Assembly (NCBI GenBank): GCA_042093895.1
Contig: JBELEI010000002.1
Location: 321,022 to 385,021 of the forward strand
Length of the DNA stretch: 64,000 nt
From: Cognatiyoonia sp.
GTDB lineage: Bacteria > Pseudomonadota > Alphaproteobacteria > Rhodobacterales > Rhodobacteraceae
Direction: 5' to 3'
Made by a program: the position numbers and the translations under genes. The notes beneath the pieces were generated by a model. It did no database searches, was not told where the DNA came from, and saw only the letters and a program-made list of their open reading frames with translations. Below, piece by piece: positions 1,275-24,416 of the stretch. Positions within the stretch are counted from its first letter, which is position 1. The number at the start of each line of letters is the position of its first letter.

Positions 1275-1735
1275 GGGCTATGGCCTTAATCGGCCTAATG
1301 TTGACTCTCGCTGGGGCGGCTCAGGCTTCTTGTACACCCGAAAAAGTAACAGTCTTTGGGGATTGGGGGCAGGCTCGCTTTGCCGTGACTGTTGCTGATG
1401 ACGCCGCTGAACGCGGTCAGGGGCTTATGTTCGTAGAGGACTTGGCACTCCTTGAGGGGATGCTTTTTGTTTATGAACGCCCACAATCCGTGACCTTTTG
1501 GATGCGTAATACGTTAATCTCGCTTGATATGATATTCGTAGCGCCGGATGGCACCATCCTTAGAATTCATGAAAATGCAGTGCCACTGGACGAAACGACA
1601 ATTCCAGGTGGCGATGGCGTACAATATGTTTTGGAAGTGAATGCCGGCGTTGCGGGACGGCTGGGCATTTCGGAAGGGGATGTTTTGCAACATCCATCCT
1701 TTGGAGCAGACGCTATTCGACCTTGTACAAATTAA
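1271..1735 (+). CDS. DUF192 domain-containing secreted protein
   Basis: N-terminal signal-peptide-like segment followed by a DUF192-like core (MLFVYERPQSVTFWMRNTLISLDMIFV...YVLEVNAG). Confidence 0.8.
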   Translation: MRAMALIGLMLTLAGAAQASCTPEKVTVFGDWGQARFAVTVADDAAERGQGLMFVEDLALLEGMLFVYERPQSVTFWMRNTLISLDMIFVAPDGTILRIHENAVPLDETTIPGGDGVQYVLEVNAGVAGRLGISEGDVLQHPSFGADAIRPCTN

Positions 1736-19935: not shown

Positions 19936-20451
19936 ATGCAAACAACTTGGATCGCTCTTTTACGTGGTATCAACGTTGGTGGCTCAAATCGGCTACCGAT
20001 GGCAGATTTGCGAGAGCTCTGTACAGGTTTGGGCTGGCAGAATGTCAAAACTTACATTGCGAGCGGAAATGTTGTCTTTCAGGCAGATGGTGCAGCCGAA
20101 GCGCTAGCCTCCCGTTTGCATCAAAGTCTGCCTTTCGACGTCGCGACACTTGTCCTAGGGGCCGAAGACCTTGCGAACCGAGTGTCACATTGCCCGTTTC
20201 CGCGCACATTAGGAAAACTCGTTCACGGATTCTTTTGCTTGGATGCGCCAGATGTGGATCAAGATGCGCTCGCACATTACACGACAACAGAACAAATTGC
20301 GGTCCACGGCCACACAGTTTGGTTTTATGCACCCGATGGTTTTGGGCGATCAAAGCTGGCAGAGAATTTCCACCGCGTTGTGACTGGAACGACCTATACC
20401 GCGAGGAATCTCAACACGATTCATAAACTCGTGGACATGAGCCGCGATTAA
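19936..20451 (+). CDS. DUF1697 domain-containing protein
   Basis: MQTTWIALLRGINVGGSNRLPMADLR is a typical DUF1697 N-terminus. The ATG at 19936 is preferred. Confidence 0.75.
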   Translation: MQTTWIALLRGINVGGSNRLPMADLRELCTGLGWQNVKTYIASGNVVFQADGAAEALASRLHQSLPFDVATLVLGAEDLANRVSHCPFPRTLGKLVHGFFCLDAPDVDQDALAHYTTTEQIAVHGHTVWFYAPDGFGRSKLAENFHRVVTGTTYTARNLNTIHKLVDMSRD

Positions 20452-20467
20452 GACTACGAAAACGCCT

Positions 20468-20512
20468 ATGAAAAAGATCTGCATCATTTCCTGCTGCATT
20501 ATTACCTGCTGA
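20468..20512 (+). promoter_or_regulatory. candidate Cys-rich leader peptide ORF upstream of cysS
   Basis: ATG AAA AAG ATC TGC ATC ATT TCC TGC TGC ATT ATT ACC TGC TGA encodes MKKICIISCCIITC (4 Cys in 14 codons), 88 nt upstream of the cysS ATG. The SD sequence is weak. Confidence 0.35.
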
Positions 20513-20599
20513 ATATCACGCGGGCCGCTTTTTCACGTTTCACTCAATCGCTGAACTAGGTAGGTCCGCACCGAAACCCTTTCGCGCGTGTGAGACCCA

Positions 20600-22027
20600 A
20601 TGACCGAGATCAAATTACAAAACACCAAGACCCGTCGCAAAGAGGTCTTTGAGCCGATCGACCCACAGAACGTCCGCATGTATTTGTGTGGGCCAACGGT
20701 CTATGATCGCGCGCATCTTGGGAACGCACGCAATGTCTTGATGTTCGACGTGTTGTTTCGTCTGTTCCGTCATATCTACGGCGCCGATCAGGTAACCTAT
20801 GTGCGCAATTTCACGGATGTGGATGACAAGATTAATACCCGTGCCGCCGAAACTGGTCGGTCGATCCGTGACATTACCGATGAGACCATCACTTGGTATC
20901 ACGCTGACATGGATGCACTGGGCGCATTGCGTCCGAACCATGAACCGCGCGCAACGGAATACATCGAACAAATGGTCGAAATGACGGCTGATCTGATCGC
21001 CAAAGGCCACGCTTATGAAGCCGAGGGTCATGTCCTATTCGCCGTGTCCAGTGATCCCGAGTACGGCTCGCTGTCTGGTCGCTCGGTCGATGATATGATT
21101 GCGGGCGCACGTGTCGAAGTGGCCCCTTATAAGCGTGATCCAATGGATTTCGTTTTGTGGAAGCCGTCTGATGCCGAGACCCCCGGCTGGGACAGCCCGT
21201 GGGGACGAGGGCGTCCGGGCTGGCATATTGAATGTTCTGCAATGTCCAAGGAACTGCTCGGTACGACGTTTGACATCCATGGCGGTGGCAACGACTTGCA
21301 ATTCCCGCACCACGAAAATGAGATCGCGCAATCGCGTTGCGCGCATCCAGAGGCCGAGTTTGCACGCGTTTGGTTGCACAATGATATGTTGCAGGTCGAA
21401 GGTAAAAAGATGTCCAAAAGCTTGGGCAACTTCTTCACTGTGCGCGACTTATTGGAGCAAGGCGTTCCAGGTGAAGTGATCCGATTTGTGTTCCTGTCGA
21501 CGCATTATGGCAAACCAATGGACTGGACCGAAAAGAAGCGCGGCGATGCGGATGCAACATTGCGCAAATGGTTTGGTATTTTGCAAACCCACGGCTTTGG
21601 CCCAGATTTGATTGCTGCGCTTAAGGCGGATGGCAAATGGGAAGCGGACGCCGAATTCATCGGTGTGCTCGCCAATGATCTGAACACATCCGGCGCAATT
21701 GCCCGACTGCATGTTTTGGCCAAGGGCAAAACACCTGCCGCATTGGCACCATTTGCGCATGGTTTGGAGACGCTTGGACTGATCGGTGATTGGTCCGCGC
21801 TGCCGTTGACCGAAGATGCCACAGGCGCAGATGTCTCTGACGACATTGCCCAAAAGGTTGACGCACTTCTTGCCGCGCGATCCGCAGCCCGCGCCGCCAA
21901 AGACTGGGGCGAGGCGGACCGCGTGCGCGAGGTTCTAAACGCCGCCGGCGTCCAGGTCACAGATGTGGGCGGGCAGGCGACTTGGGTCCCGGGCCCAGAT
22001 TTTGATCCTTCGAAACTGGAGGGCTAG
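20600..22027 (+). CDS. cysS: cysteine--tRNA ligase
   Basis: 475 aa with HLGNAR (HIGH-type) and KMSKS motifs and Zn-binding Cys residues. Confidence 0.95.
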
Positions 22028-22028
22028 C

Positions 22029-23648
22029 ATGACCAAAGAAAGGCTATACCTCTTTGACACGACGCTGCGCGACGGACAGCAAACCCAAGGCGTGCAGTTT
22101 TCGACCGACGAAAAGGTTCAGATCGCCCAGATGTTGGACACCCTCGGTGTTGATTACATTGAGGGCGGCTGGCCCGGAGCAAACCCGACGGACAGCGAGT
22201 TCTTCAATGCTGATCTCAAAACCCGTGCGACGATGACCGCCTTTGGCATGACCAAACGCGCAGGTAGGTCAGCCGAAAACGACGATGTGCTCGCCGCCGT
22301 TATGAATGCAAATACACCGGCCGTCTGCCTGGTTGGAAAATCATCTGCTTTTCATGTCACCGATGCGCTCGGAATCACCTTGGCTGAAAACACCGAGAAC
22401 CTATCTGCGTCTTTCGCCCATTTGGTCGCCAACAAACGTGAGGCCCTATTTGACGCCGAGCACTTCTTTGACGGGTACAAAGCTAACCCTCACTACGCGT
22501 TAGAGGCGCTGCATTCAGCCTATGCTGCAGGCTGCCGCTGGATTGTACTTTGCGATACCAACGGAGGAACGATGCCGCACGAAGTGACTGAAATTGTCAC
22601 AACTGTCATCGATAGCGGCATCCCCGGCGACCACTTGGGCATTCACACACATAACGACACCGAGAACGCCGTGGCCAACACGCTGGCGGCAGTCCTTGCT
22701 GGCGCGCGCCAGATCCAAGGCACACTGAATGGACTTGGGGAACGCTGCGGCAATGCCAACCTAACAACGTTGATCCCGATCCTGAAACTCAAAGAACCTT
22801 TCGCCAGTCGGTTCGAAACTGGCGTGAGCGATGAAGCGCTTCAAGGGCTTTTGCCAGCATCGCGACTACTGGATGATATCCTAAACCGTGTGCCTGCCAA
22901 ACAGGCGGCCTTTGTCGGTGCATCAGCATTCGCGCATAAAGCGGGACTGCACGCGAGTGCTATTCTGAAGAACCCAACGACTTATGAACACGTCGATCCC
23001 GCCGTGATCGGTAATGAACGCATCGTGCCGATGTCCAACCAAGCGGGGCAATCGAACCTTCGTGAACGTTTGGCAAAAGCAGGCATCAGTGTTGAAAAGG
23101 GCGACCCTGCGCTGGCGCGCATCCTTGACCGGATCAAAGAGAAAGAGGCTCAAGGCTATTCCTACGACACGGCCCAAGCGTCGTTTGAATTGCTCGCGCG
23201 CGAAGAGTTAGGTCTTTTGCCGTCGTTTTTTGAGGTCAAACGCTATCGCGTCACAGTCGAGCGTCGCAAAAACAAACATAACGAGATGGTGTCTCTGTCA
23301 GAGGCTGTCGTCGCCGTCAAAATGGCCGGTGAGCGGATGCTGAATGTGAGCGATAGTCTCGGCGAAGACGGCACGGATCAGGGGCCCGTGAACGCTTTGG
23401 GACGTGCACTCAGTAAGGATCTCGGGAAGTATCAAAACTACATCGATGACCTTAAACTGGTCGACTACAAGGTGCGCATAACCAATGGCGGAATAGAGGC
23501 CGTCACGCGTGTCATCATCGACAGCGAAGATGGAAAAGGCCATCATTGGTCGACTGTAGGCGTCAGCGCCAACATCGTTGATGCGTCCTTTGAGGCACTT
23601 GTTGATGCGATTAATTGGAAGCTGATCCGCGACGGGGCGAAAGCTTAA
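22029..23648 (+). CDS. cimA: citramalate synthase (LeuA/CimA family)
   Basis: MTKERLYLFDTTLRDGQQTQGV...; about 540 aa with a C-terminal LeuA-dimer-like regulatory domain. The ATG lies 1 nt after the cysS stop. Confidence 0.82.
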   Translation: MTKERLYLFDTTLRDGQQTQGVQFSTDEKVQIAQMLDTLGVDYIEGGWPGANPTDSEFFNADLKTRATMTAFGMTKRAGRSAENDDVLAAVMNANTPAVCLVGKSSAFHVTDALGITLAENTENLSASFAHLVANKREALFDAEHFFDGYKANPHYALEALHSAYAAGCRWIVLCDTNGGTMPHEVTEIVTTVIDSGIPGDHLGIHTHNDTENAVANTLAAVLAGARQIQGTLNGLGERCGNANLTTLIPILKLKEPFASRFETGVSDEALQGLLPASRLLDDILNRVPAKQAAFVGASAFAHKAGLHASAILKNPTTYEHVDPAVIGNERIVPMSNQAGQSNLRERLAKAGISVEKGDPALARILDRIKEKEAQGYSYDTAQASFELLAREELGLLPSFFEVKRYRVTVERRKNKHNEMVSLSEAVVAVKMAGERMLNVSDSLGEDGTDQGPVNALGRALSKDLGKYQNYIDDLKLVDYKVRITNGGIEAVTRVIIDSEDGKGHHWSTVGVSANIVDASFEALVDAINWKLIRDGAKA

Positions 23649-24416
23649 ATGAGCTTTGAGGCCTGCGCCGCATTGGTCGAACGCAGCGACCCTGACCGGT
23701 TTCGCGCGACGATGGCCGCACCGATTTCCGCGCGGCGCATTTTGTTTCCGCTCTATGCCTTCAATGTCGAAGTCACACGCGCGCCTTGGGTCACGCAAGA
23801 AGCGATGATCGCCGAAATGCGCTTGCAGTGGTGGCGTGATGCGCTTGAGGAAATCGGGCAGCGCCGCACCGTACGCAAACACGAGGTCGTCGATGAGCTG
23901 GCGGGTGTTATGGATGTCGAAGCTGTTCAAAACCTCGATGGTCTTGTCGCGTCGCGGCGTTGGGACGTTTACAAAGATGCCTTCGAAAATACAGAGCATT
24001 TTGAAGACTACATTTCGTCCACATCAGGAAACCTTATGTGGACCGCGGCCCGGCTTTTGGGCGTAGCAGACGAAATCGCCGTTCGGGATTTCGCATATGC
24101 GGCAGGTGTCGCCGCTCTATTTCGCGCGATCCCAACGCTCGAAGAAGCTGGTCGCAAACCGCTATTGGATGGCACGGCGCAAGGCGTAAGAGACGTGGCG
24201 CAGGGTGCATTAAACCGTTGGAAACGTGCAAAATCGCAGAAACATGCGATCTCGAAAGCAGCAGCGCCCGCGCTGTGGTCTGGGTTCCGTGCTCGACCAG
24301 TTCTCGAGGCTGTTATCCGAAACCCAGGCCTCGTTGCGCACGACGGTTTGCATTTTGGACCGGCGCGCGAAAGCTTGCGATTTGCGAATGTGTCTTTGCT
24401 TGGGTGGTGGCGCTAA
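23649..24416 (+). CDS. squalene/phytoene synthase family protein (NDUFAF6-like)
   Basis: 255 aa with an isoprenoid-synthase-fold-like sequence (LFPLYAFNVEVTRAP...MRLQWWRDAL). It starts immediately after the cimA stop. Confidence 0.78.
   Translation: MSFEACAALVERSDPDRFRATMAAPISARRILFPLYAFNVEVTRAPWVTQEAMIAEMRLQWWRDALEEIGQRRTVRKHEVVDELAGVMDVEAVQNLDGLVASRRWDVYKDAFENTEHFEDYISSTSGNLMWTAARLLGVADEIAVRDFAYAAGVAALFRAIPTLEEAGRKPLLDGTAQGVRDVAQGALNRWKRAKSQKHAISKAAAPALWSGFRARPVLEAVIRNPGLVAHDGLHFGPARESLRFANVSLLGWWR

Follow-up and report, generated by a model that had tools for sequence, protein, structure and literature searches.

A conserved cysteine-codon upstream open reading frame before cysS in Cognatiyoonia sp., a candidate attenuator with a predicted translational output

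Results

Locus and upstream open reading frame

The window analyzed here is a 64,000-nucleotide (nt) stretch of Cognatiyoonia sp. (Rhodobacteraceae; assembly GCA_042093895.1, contig JBELEI010000002.1, positions 321,022 to 385,021), and its subject is a short open reading frame (ORF) rich in cysteine codons that lies directly upstream of cysS, the gene for cysteine--tRNA ligase. Coordinates are those of the window, and all window features described are on the plus strand. The cysS gene (20600 to 22027) was identified with both Pfam (tRNA-synt_1e, E = 4.5e-117) and NCBIfam (TIGR00435, 455 bits with a cutoff of 340). It is followed by cimA, annotated as encoding citramalate synthase (22029 to 23648; NCBIfam TIGR00977, 588 bits with a cutoff of 450), which starts 1 nt past the cysS stop when the start at 22029 is adopted from the gene call in the relative L170. 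A longer cimA ORF of 561 amino acids (21963 to 23648) was rejected as an overextension that would overlap cysS by 65 nt.

The gap between the end of the preceding DUF1697 gene (20451) and the cysS ATG (20600) is 148 nt long. The upstream ORF (uORF) occupies 20468 to 20512 of this gap, with its ATG at 20468, 14 sense codons encoding MKKICIISCCIITC, and a TGA stop at 20510 to 20512; 87 nt separate the stop from the cysS ATG. Four codons are TGC, starting at 20480, 20492, 20495, and 20507 (codons 5, 9, 10, and 14). Codons 9 and 10 form the tandem UGC UGC at 20492 to 20497, with further Cys codons at 20480 to 20482 and 20507 to 20509, and UGCUGC was the most conserved stretch of the uORF in the leader alignment. 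This Cys-rich ORF had been pointed out in the initial annotation, made from the letters alone; its coordinates and four TGC codons were confirmed on the sequence, and the ORF recurs in relatives. When the 148-nt gap was shuffled 100,000 times, 0.07% of the shuffles produced an ATG-initiated ORF of 8 to 30 codons with four or more Cys codons; across the window, just 7 of 809 small ORFs of this kind had that many.

The nearest CysS homologs were from Yoonia (a member of the Rhodobacterales), Loktanella, Cognatiyoonia, and Octadecabacter, at 75 to 84% identity. The uORF was present upstream of cysS in all nine close-relative loci fetched and in most Rhodobacterales examined. The close-relative peptides were MKKNCIIICCIITC, MKSVAIIICCIITC, MKKTCIIICCIIPC, MKSNCIITCCIIVC, MKSICTITCCIIPC, MKKTCITICCIIPC, MKSICIIACIIIC, MKSNCIITCCIIIC, and MKSTMIIICCIITC, and similar uORFs were seen in further Rhodobacterales in a scan of 80 genome loci. 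Position was maintained irrespective of the upstream gene: the distance from uORF to cysS was 81 to 108 nt in 20 Rhodobacterales leaders, and the uORF kept its place at three loci (L164, L165, and L019) where the upstream gene is not DUF1697, including L019, whose uORF encodes MNRIACIITCCITT and lies 84 nt 5' of cysS. Among the 20 leaders, insertions and deletions within the uORF involved whole codons, so that the frame was kept, and exchanges between TGC and TGT (Cys) and between ATT and ATC (Ile) were synonymous. Cys made up 22% of uORF codons and 0.9% of cysS codons. The uORF is real and conserved, and an alignment of related cysS upstream regions, proposed earlier as a check, returned a short Cys-codon ORF that persists despite nucleotide drift.

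A covariance model (CM) trained on 18 other Rhodobacterales cysS leaders, with the window excluded, matched the window at 20468 to 20602 (100.2 bits, E = 9e-26), its sole match in 64 kb. Both the Cys uORF and a CM match were missing at the cysS genes of L006, L010, and L077 (Roseicyclus mahoneyensis, the metagenome-assembled genome [MAG] UBA10424, and Paracoccus homiensis, respectively; identity of the Paracoccus CysS is only 46%), so not every member of the order carries the leader. No Rfam 15 family, the T-box model included, matched between 19000 and 22000 of the window at E values of up to 10, and none matched the leader at the gathering threshold over 12 related loci.

Predicted promoter

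Promoter elements were compared across 47 alphaproteobacterial cysS leaders anchored on the uORF AUG. A TTGAC-like pentamer began at -35 to -38 from the AUG in 46 of the 47 leaders and was exact in 29, and hexamers at the -10 position in relatives (CTATCN, GATAAG, or CATTGT) ended 7 to 8 nt 5' of the AUG. The corresponding putative elements in the window are TGGACA (-35; 20432 to 20437) and CTACGA (-10; 20454 to 20459), the latter a weak hexamer match located 8 nt 5' of the uORF AUG. A consensus scan for sigma-70 promoters and terminators found no promoter in the leader, and the promoter became visible only through comparison. Shine-Dalgarno (SD)-like tetramers preceded 3 of 47 uORFs versus 17 of 20 cysS genes. 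The conserved spacing from promoter to AUG would place the transcription start site at or beside the A of the uORF AUG, making the uORF leaderless, and on this comparison of sequences it is probably translated from a leaderless transcript. The earlier remark that the ORF has no good SD holds and would be accounted for by such a transcript. A documented leaderless attenuator uORF is trpL of Sinorhizobium meliloti (PMC10117765).

The putative promoter (20431 to 20459) extends from the last codons of the DUF1697 gene to just beyond its stop (20449 to 20451). This placement makes it unlikely that the DUF1697 gene and cysS are cotranscribed by design.

Alternative helices

Four helices, P1 to P4, were predicted in the leader. 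The 5' arm of P1, UGAAAAAG (20469 to 20476), overlaps the start codon, and its partner in the minimum free energy (MFE) structure is CUUUUUCA (20528 to 20535), which includes the first of two TTTCAC copies. The 5' arm of P2, CCUGCUGA (20505 to 20512), spans the last Cys codon and the stop; its MFE partner, UCA-C-GCGGG (20516 to 20524), overlaps a segment designated R2 (GCGGGCC, 20520 to 20526). R2 can act either as the 3' arm of P2 or as the 5' arm of P3, in which it pairs with R3 (GGUCCGC, 20563 to 20569); an extended P3 reaches 20530. R3 has the cysS SD region as an alternative partner. In the resulting helix, P4, which is part of the window MFE, the 5' arm at 20563 to 20571 pairs with GUGUGAGACC (20588 to 20597), which includes the cysS SD GAGA (20592 to 20595). 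P2 and P3 are mutually exclusive because both use R2, and P3 competes with P4 too.

The pairing of each leader's own segments was compared with permuted pairings among 43 to 47 distinct leaders. Cognate duplexes were more stable for P1 (-10.7 versus -7.8 kcal/mol, z = -8.4), P2 (z = -7.6), and P3 (z = -4.9), with 0 of 20,000 permutations reaching the cognate value in each case. Compensatory variants of P1 included AUGAAAAAG:CUUUUUCA, GAAGAGC:GCUCUUUC, AAGAGC:GCUCUU, GAAAACG:CGUUUUC, ACGGCC:GGCCGU, GACGCGAGC:GCUCACGUC, and UGACAA:UUGUCA, and those of P3 included GCGGGCC:GGUCCGC, GCGGGCU:AGCCCGC, GCAGGC:GCCUGC, AGCCGG:CCGGCU, and GCUGGCC:GGCCAGC. At position 3 of R2, all four bases occur, depending on the lineage, and the P2 partner and the P3 partner both follow this base, which is the signature of one segment switching between two partners. 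On the CM alignment, P3 had a covariation score of 0.224 (shuffles, 0.114 ± 0.018, 0/500; slid controls, ≤0.085), 77% of cells paired (68.7% in shuffles), and five of eight pairs showed double changes. RNAalifold on a plain MAFFT alignment yielded only four pairs and zero covariation, because helix registers drift between clades. In these sequence comparisons P1, P2, and P3 covary, and P2 and P3 exclude each other.

Several pairings had been proposed in the initial annotation. That between GCGGGCC (20520 to 20526) and GGTCCGC (20563 to 20569), with one G-U pair, is P3; it is present with compensatory changes, and the covariation check suggested for the proposed helices supported it both in the duplex test and on the CM alignment. 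The tandem TTTCAC copies (20531 to 20536 and 20538 to 20543) and the SD-like GTGAGA (20590 to 20595) are likewise present, but pairing between them was marginal (125 of 5,000 permutations), and the first copy belongs chiefly to the 3' arm of P1, where it pairs with the 5' end of the uORF. Masking of the SD by GGUCCGC is, on these models, more plausible than masking by the TTTCAC repeats. A helix between CACGCG and CGCGTG was specific to the window, with 1,892 of 5,000 permutations equal or better, and CACGCG lies at 20517 to 20522 rather than 20518 to 20523. Mutually exclusive helices do exist, as had been suggested, but the true competitor of P3 is P2 (20505 to 20512 with 20516 to 20524) rather than this helix. 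The repeat CCTGCTG (20490 to 20496 and 20505 to 20511), from which the Cys codons had been said to arise and which had been considered a possible DNA-level protein-binding motif, is present but is not a conserved DNA motif; its second copy occurs only in the Yoonia clade, where the last codon is Cys, and a DNA-binding role was rejected.

The window MFE also contains a UGCA:UGCA hairpin around the Cys codons (20480 to 20498); its first UGC is missing in L162, L169, L005, and L007. The UGCA motifs include GCA, the anticodon of tRNA-Cys, and the peptide pattern I-C-x-I-C...I-I is kept across orders, both of which are in keeping with an RNA that serves as a protein operator (for instance, CysRS autoregulation like that of ThrRS on thrS) or with a peptide that is itself functional, the Cys codons not being a charging signal in either case. 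Cys is kept, however, through UGC-to-UGU changes that destroy GCA; the last codons follow P2 pairing and not residue identity (C, R, G, T, or S); and a uORF stop, R2, and R3 arranged as they are here characterize a switch governed by ribosome position. An operator or a functional peptide is accordingly considered highly improbable.

Predicted accessibility of the cysS initiation region

With a Cys codon in the A site, a ribosome would cover the entire P2 5' arm (8/8 nt) in the window, as it would in the median Rhodobacterales leader; this geometry suggests that a stalled ribosome would occlude P2. When R3 (9-nt core) was blocked, the fraction of the SD window predicted to be unpaired was 0.46 rather than 0.29; it increased in 14 of 20 leaders and decreased in 1. 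Over the 20 leaders, SD nucleotides paired with native R3 at a mean of 0.47, compared to 0.29 with composition-matched shuffled R3 (p = 0.003). When the footprint of a Cys-stalled ribosome was masked, accessibility of the initiation region was 0.44, versus 0.37 in free RNA (p = 0.001) and 0.35 with the ribosome at the stop (p = 0.009). These folding predictions are consistent with masking of the SD by R3, which is the weakest step of the model developed below.

Leaders outside Rhodobacterales

In 160 loci, small ORFs that begin with ATG no more than 250 nt 5' of cysS carried at least two Cys among their last 10 residues more often on the sense strand (44/197) than on the reverse complement (8/167). 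In Rhizobiales/Hyphomicrobiales, Cys/Ile-rich uORFs of leaderless appearance lay 70 to 160 nt upstream of cysS (for example, MKTVICIICRKIIR and MNGRHICGICREIIR). They fell into families represented by MKTV[IT]CIICRKIIR in Sinorhizobium, Ensifer, and Rhizobium; MKTS.AICGICIIG in Mesorhizobium and Phyllobacteriaceae; MKTPSAPICICVIIIG in Brucella; MNG....ICGICREI[IM][SRG] in Pseudolabrys, alphaproteobacterial MAGs, and several metagenome contigs; and MTRALAIICIICR in Bosea. All of these families share one layout, consisting of promoter, uORF, R2, pyrimidine tract, and R3. The loci concerned were L023, L032, L033, L078, L041, L050, L124, L049, L102, L015, L018, L021, and L038, together with L089 to L092, L099, L117 to L119, L122, L053, L104, L042, L083, and L093. 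The Rhodobacterales CM detected several of these leaders at the correct place, in L053 (5e-6), in L078 and L104 (1.4e-4), and in L108, L112, L124, L102, L033, and L032. Homologous leaders are present in Rhizobiales by these matches, and the element appears older and more widespread than published.

Codons for Ile were also enriched. They accounted for 30% of uORF codons in Rhodobacterales and 25% in non-Rhodobacterales, compared to about 5% in cysS, a roughly 5- to 6-fold enrichment across the 47 uORFs, in which Ile is encoded mainly by ATT, a locally rare codon (Ile codons at 20477 to 20503 in the window). In the two groups, respectively, ATT:ATC was 49:32 and 80:23 in uORFs and 102:245 and 59:437 in cysS; in non-Rhodobacterales leaders, ATT represented 78% of the Ile codons of the uORF versus 12% of those of cysS. 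With an Ile codon in the A site, a ribosome would cover half or more of the P2 5' arm in 47 of 47 leaders. The cimA gene was found downstream of cysS in 50 loci among those examined, in both orders.

Discussion

The leader upstream of cysS is interpreted as a ribosome-mediated attenuator in which a leaderless uORF of 14 codons would sense Cys-tRNA(Cys) and the output would be translational, a reading that draws on sequence comparison and structure modeling and is given a probability of roughly 58%. Transcription would begin at or beside the uORF AUG, and a ribosome would load once the 5' end emerges. With ample charged tRNA-Cys, the ribosome would finish quickly and allow the 5' domain to close, with the start-codon region pairing with the U-rich tract (P1) and the last codon and stop pairing with GCGGG (P2). 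R3 would then be left free to pair with the cysS SD region (P4), keeping cysS initiation and cimA expression low. A stall at the UGC codons would instead cover the P2 5' arm, permit R2 to pair with R3 (P3), and release the SD, so that cysS and cimA are translated. That a stall corresponds to the ON state is suggested by the logic of the switch and by analogy with the behavior of other synthetase leaders; cimA is probably coregulated with cysS. The initial annotation had already proposed that stalling at Cys codons remodels the leader and controls cysS and possibly cimA. The conserved Cys uORF and the covarying alternative helices support that idea, although some of the helices then named were wrong.

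A Cys-codon leader for cysS is not new to Alphaproteobacteria, contrary to what was first assumed. Brewer et al. 2021 (RNA Biol 18:2417, PMC8632094) predicted a motif, uORFC-8-2, from 145 representatives located exclusively upstream of cysS in Rhodobacterales. As summarized in that report, the motif comprises a conserved uORF that starts with AUG and contains a tandem pair of Cys codons, predominantly UGC and "usually at positions 14 and 15," together with stems that enclose and follow these codons and, at the 3' end, a run of U interpreted as an intrinsic terminator; ribosome-mediated attenuation in response to aminoacyl-tRNA-Cys was proposed computationally, and a three-stem closing helix was called rare and without covariation (PMC8632094). 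Judged by this description, the element in the window is the uORFC-8-2 motif and was therefore already known. The two agree in the place directly 5' of cysS, the Rhodobacterales host, and the AUG uORF with tandem UGC. A putative second stem (P2) and a U-rich run are present in the window as well and do not register as a terminator under generic criteria, and the MFE hairpin around the Cys codons is a candidate for the first stem. They differ, as far as the published summary of the motif goes, in that the tandem Cys codons are codons 9 and 10 of 14 here; the U-rich run, which forms the P1 3' arm, pairs with the 5' end of the uORF; the closing helix P1 covaries; and the motif, which ends at the U-run in its published form, is followed here by the covarying P3, which competes with the stem taken for a terminator. 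Leaderless promoter geometry and Rhizobiales homologs are further additions to that summary. The motif is not in Rfam 15, the literature on cysS attenuators, uORFs, and leader peptides yielded no description besides Brewer et al. 2021 and no follow-up, and the S. meliloti uORF and small-protein literature that was consulted does not mention a cysS leader. What is new here, on comparative and modeling grounds, would be a revised mechanism and a broader phylogenetic range, the element itself being known as a kind.

In the mechanism of Brewer et al. 2021, the same Cys-codon sensor has an intrinsic terminator as its output: P2 together with the U-rich tract (20528 to 20543) would stop transcription, and a stall that prevents P2 would lead to read-through. 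Two stems and a U-run at the 3' end make up the published consensus, as summarized; P2 is a genuine GC-rich hairpin that covaries; and the stretch that follows it, CUUUUUCACGUUUCAC, is U-rich at 20529 to 20533 and 20538 to 20540. Translational control is nevertheless preferred because the scan found no terminator-like site between 20452 and 20599, in line with the earlier remark that there is no convincing terminator hairpin, and because the U-tract begins 4 nt past the stem, after a CCGC spacer. Moreover, the tract covaries with the 5' end of the uORF and is not U-rich in some lineages (GCUCACGUCCUCG in Bosea and AUCACCUCAUUCCC in L005), and the strongly covarying P3 requires R3, which lies about 35 nt 3' of where termination would occur, so that this downstream competitor would act too late. 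Intrinsic termination is considered unlikely as the output.

The C/U-rich, G-poor tract after R2 could also serve the same uORF and helix switch as a Rho utilization (rut) site or an RNase entry site that is exposed or hidden as P1 and P3 alternate, in which case the output would be Rho-dependent termination or mRNA decay. Rho attenuation controlled by a uORF has precedents elsewhere, such as tnaC and mgtL, and the pyrimidine-rich tract here adjoins the uORF and differs in pairing state between the conformers. It is short, however (about 20 to 30 nt), in several families it is paired in both conformers (in P1 or extended P3), and the conserved GCGnGAGG beside the SD is better explained through SD masking. 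This output is rated less likely still than an intrinsic terminator.

The pheM-pheST system of Escherichia coli is a tRNA synthetase example of leader-peptide attenuation. The leader described here shares with E. coli trpL, hisL, and pheM-pheST and with S. meliloti trpL an ORF rich in cognate codons and exclusive helices that are selected by the position of the ribosome. Members of that class end in a GC hairpin and U-tract terminator, whereas none was detected in this leader, and its predicted last helix involves the SD. In Firmicutes, cysE-cysS is preceded by a T-box riboswitch, which contacts the tRNA itself and lacks a uORF; in both systems, low charging of tRNA-Cys would increase cysS expression. 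The closest parallel in proposed mechanism, a stalled ribosome that blocks an RBS-sequestering structure (RBS, ribosome-binding site) with a translational output, is offered by mycobacterial leaderless poly-Cys small ORFs, which were experimentally shown to unmask a downstream RBS (Canestrari et al. 2020, 10.1101/834739). The likeness is one of analogy: mycobacteria are another phylum, no homology is expected, and their ORFs precede cysteine metabolism operons rather than cysS and have been studied experimentally.

Several observations weigh against translational attenuation as set out above. The CM alignment was fitted to P3 and leans toward structure, and neither the permutation tests nor the CM alignment tests include a correction for phylogenetic relatedness. 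As a whole, the window leader does not fold more stably than shuffled sequences (z = -1.04). Three Rhodobacterales-type leaders (L003, L008, and L009) have a single Cys codon, and several Rhizobiales families have Cys codons too far upstream to shield P2. Pairing of R3 with the SD was not significant in the window taken alone (0.62 versus 0.48 ± 0.22), and the R3:SD helix showed no covariation across leaders (1,057 of 5,000 permutations), since both segments are nearly invariant. The predicted shifts in accessibility are modest, and the published model proposes transcription termination.

A more extended proposal is that the published motif represents one lineage of an older leader, with a leaderless uORF, that Rhodobacterales and Rhizobiales/Hyphomicrobiales share. 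The switch of this leader between P1/P2 and P3 would act on cysS translation initiation and not on termination, and its Ile-Ile codons, which hardly vary, would let it sense Ile as well as Cys on behalf of cysS-cimA. CimA acts at the first step of isoleucine synthesis by the threonine-independent route, and the enrichment of Ile codons together with cimA downstream makes Ile sensing possible. In Sinorhizobium and Ensifer, however, the Ile codons persist although no cimA lies within 3 kb, and AU-rich codons could simply keep the stretch unstructured; the dual sensor is put forward as a tentative proposal that is held to be rather doubtful.

Regulation of cysS outside Firmicutes, where the T-box operates, is poorly characterized, and this leader has been described only in a single paragraph, as a computational prediction. 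If translational attenuation is correct, Rhodobacterales (marine roseobacters) and Rhizobiales (rhizobia and Brucella) would control an essential tRNA synthetase by a leaderless uORF and an SD-masking switch, mechanistically the same solution as in mycobacteria, where it would have evolved independently. The published terminator model would then be corrected and the range of the motif extended, and the linkage to cimA and the Ile codons may point to a single leader that integrates two amino acid signals. For annotation, the 14-codon ORF and the leader of about 135 nt deserve a cis-regulatory label instead of being treated as empty intergenic space.

In Roseovarius gaetbuli (L001, positions 1430 to 1528, minus strand), a match to the Rfam pyrrolysine insertion sequence PYLIS_3 (45.4 bits) was recorded about 1.3 kb upstream of the cysS leader; it is unrelated to the leader and may be spurious. 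Downstream of cysS and cimA, the window carries an SQS_PSY gene (squalene/phytoene synthase-like, 23649 to 24416), and this gene order is conserved in the Yoonia clade. Other poly-Cys small ORFs were observed 40 to 90 nt upstream of cysS in L043 (2859 to 2942; MTHQSCSCKKCDCHGNCGKNCACGCCK, from a MAG), L063 (2812 to 2913; ...CPACCCCR, Hyphomonas), and L012 (2833 to 2961; MTDCCCGCD, Dongia). These could be independent Cys-sensing leaders or, for L043, could encode a metallothionein-like peptide.

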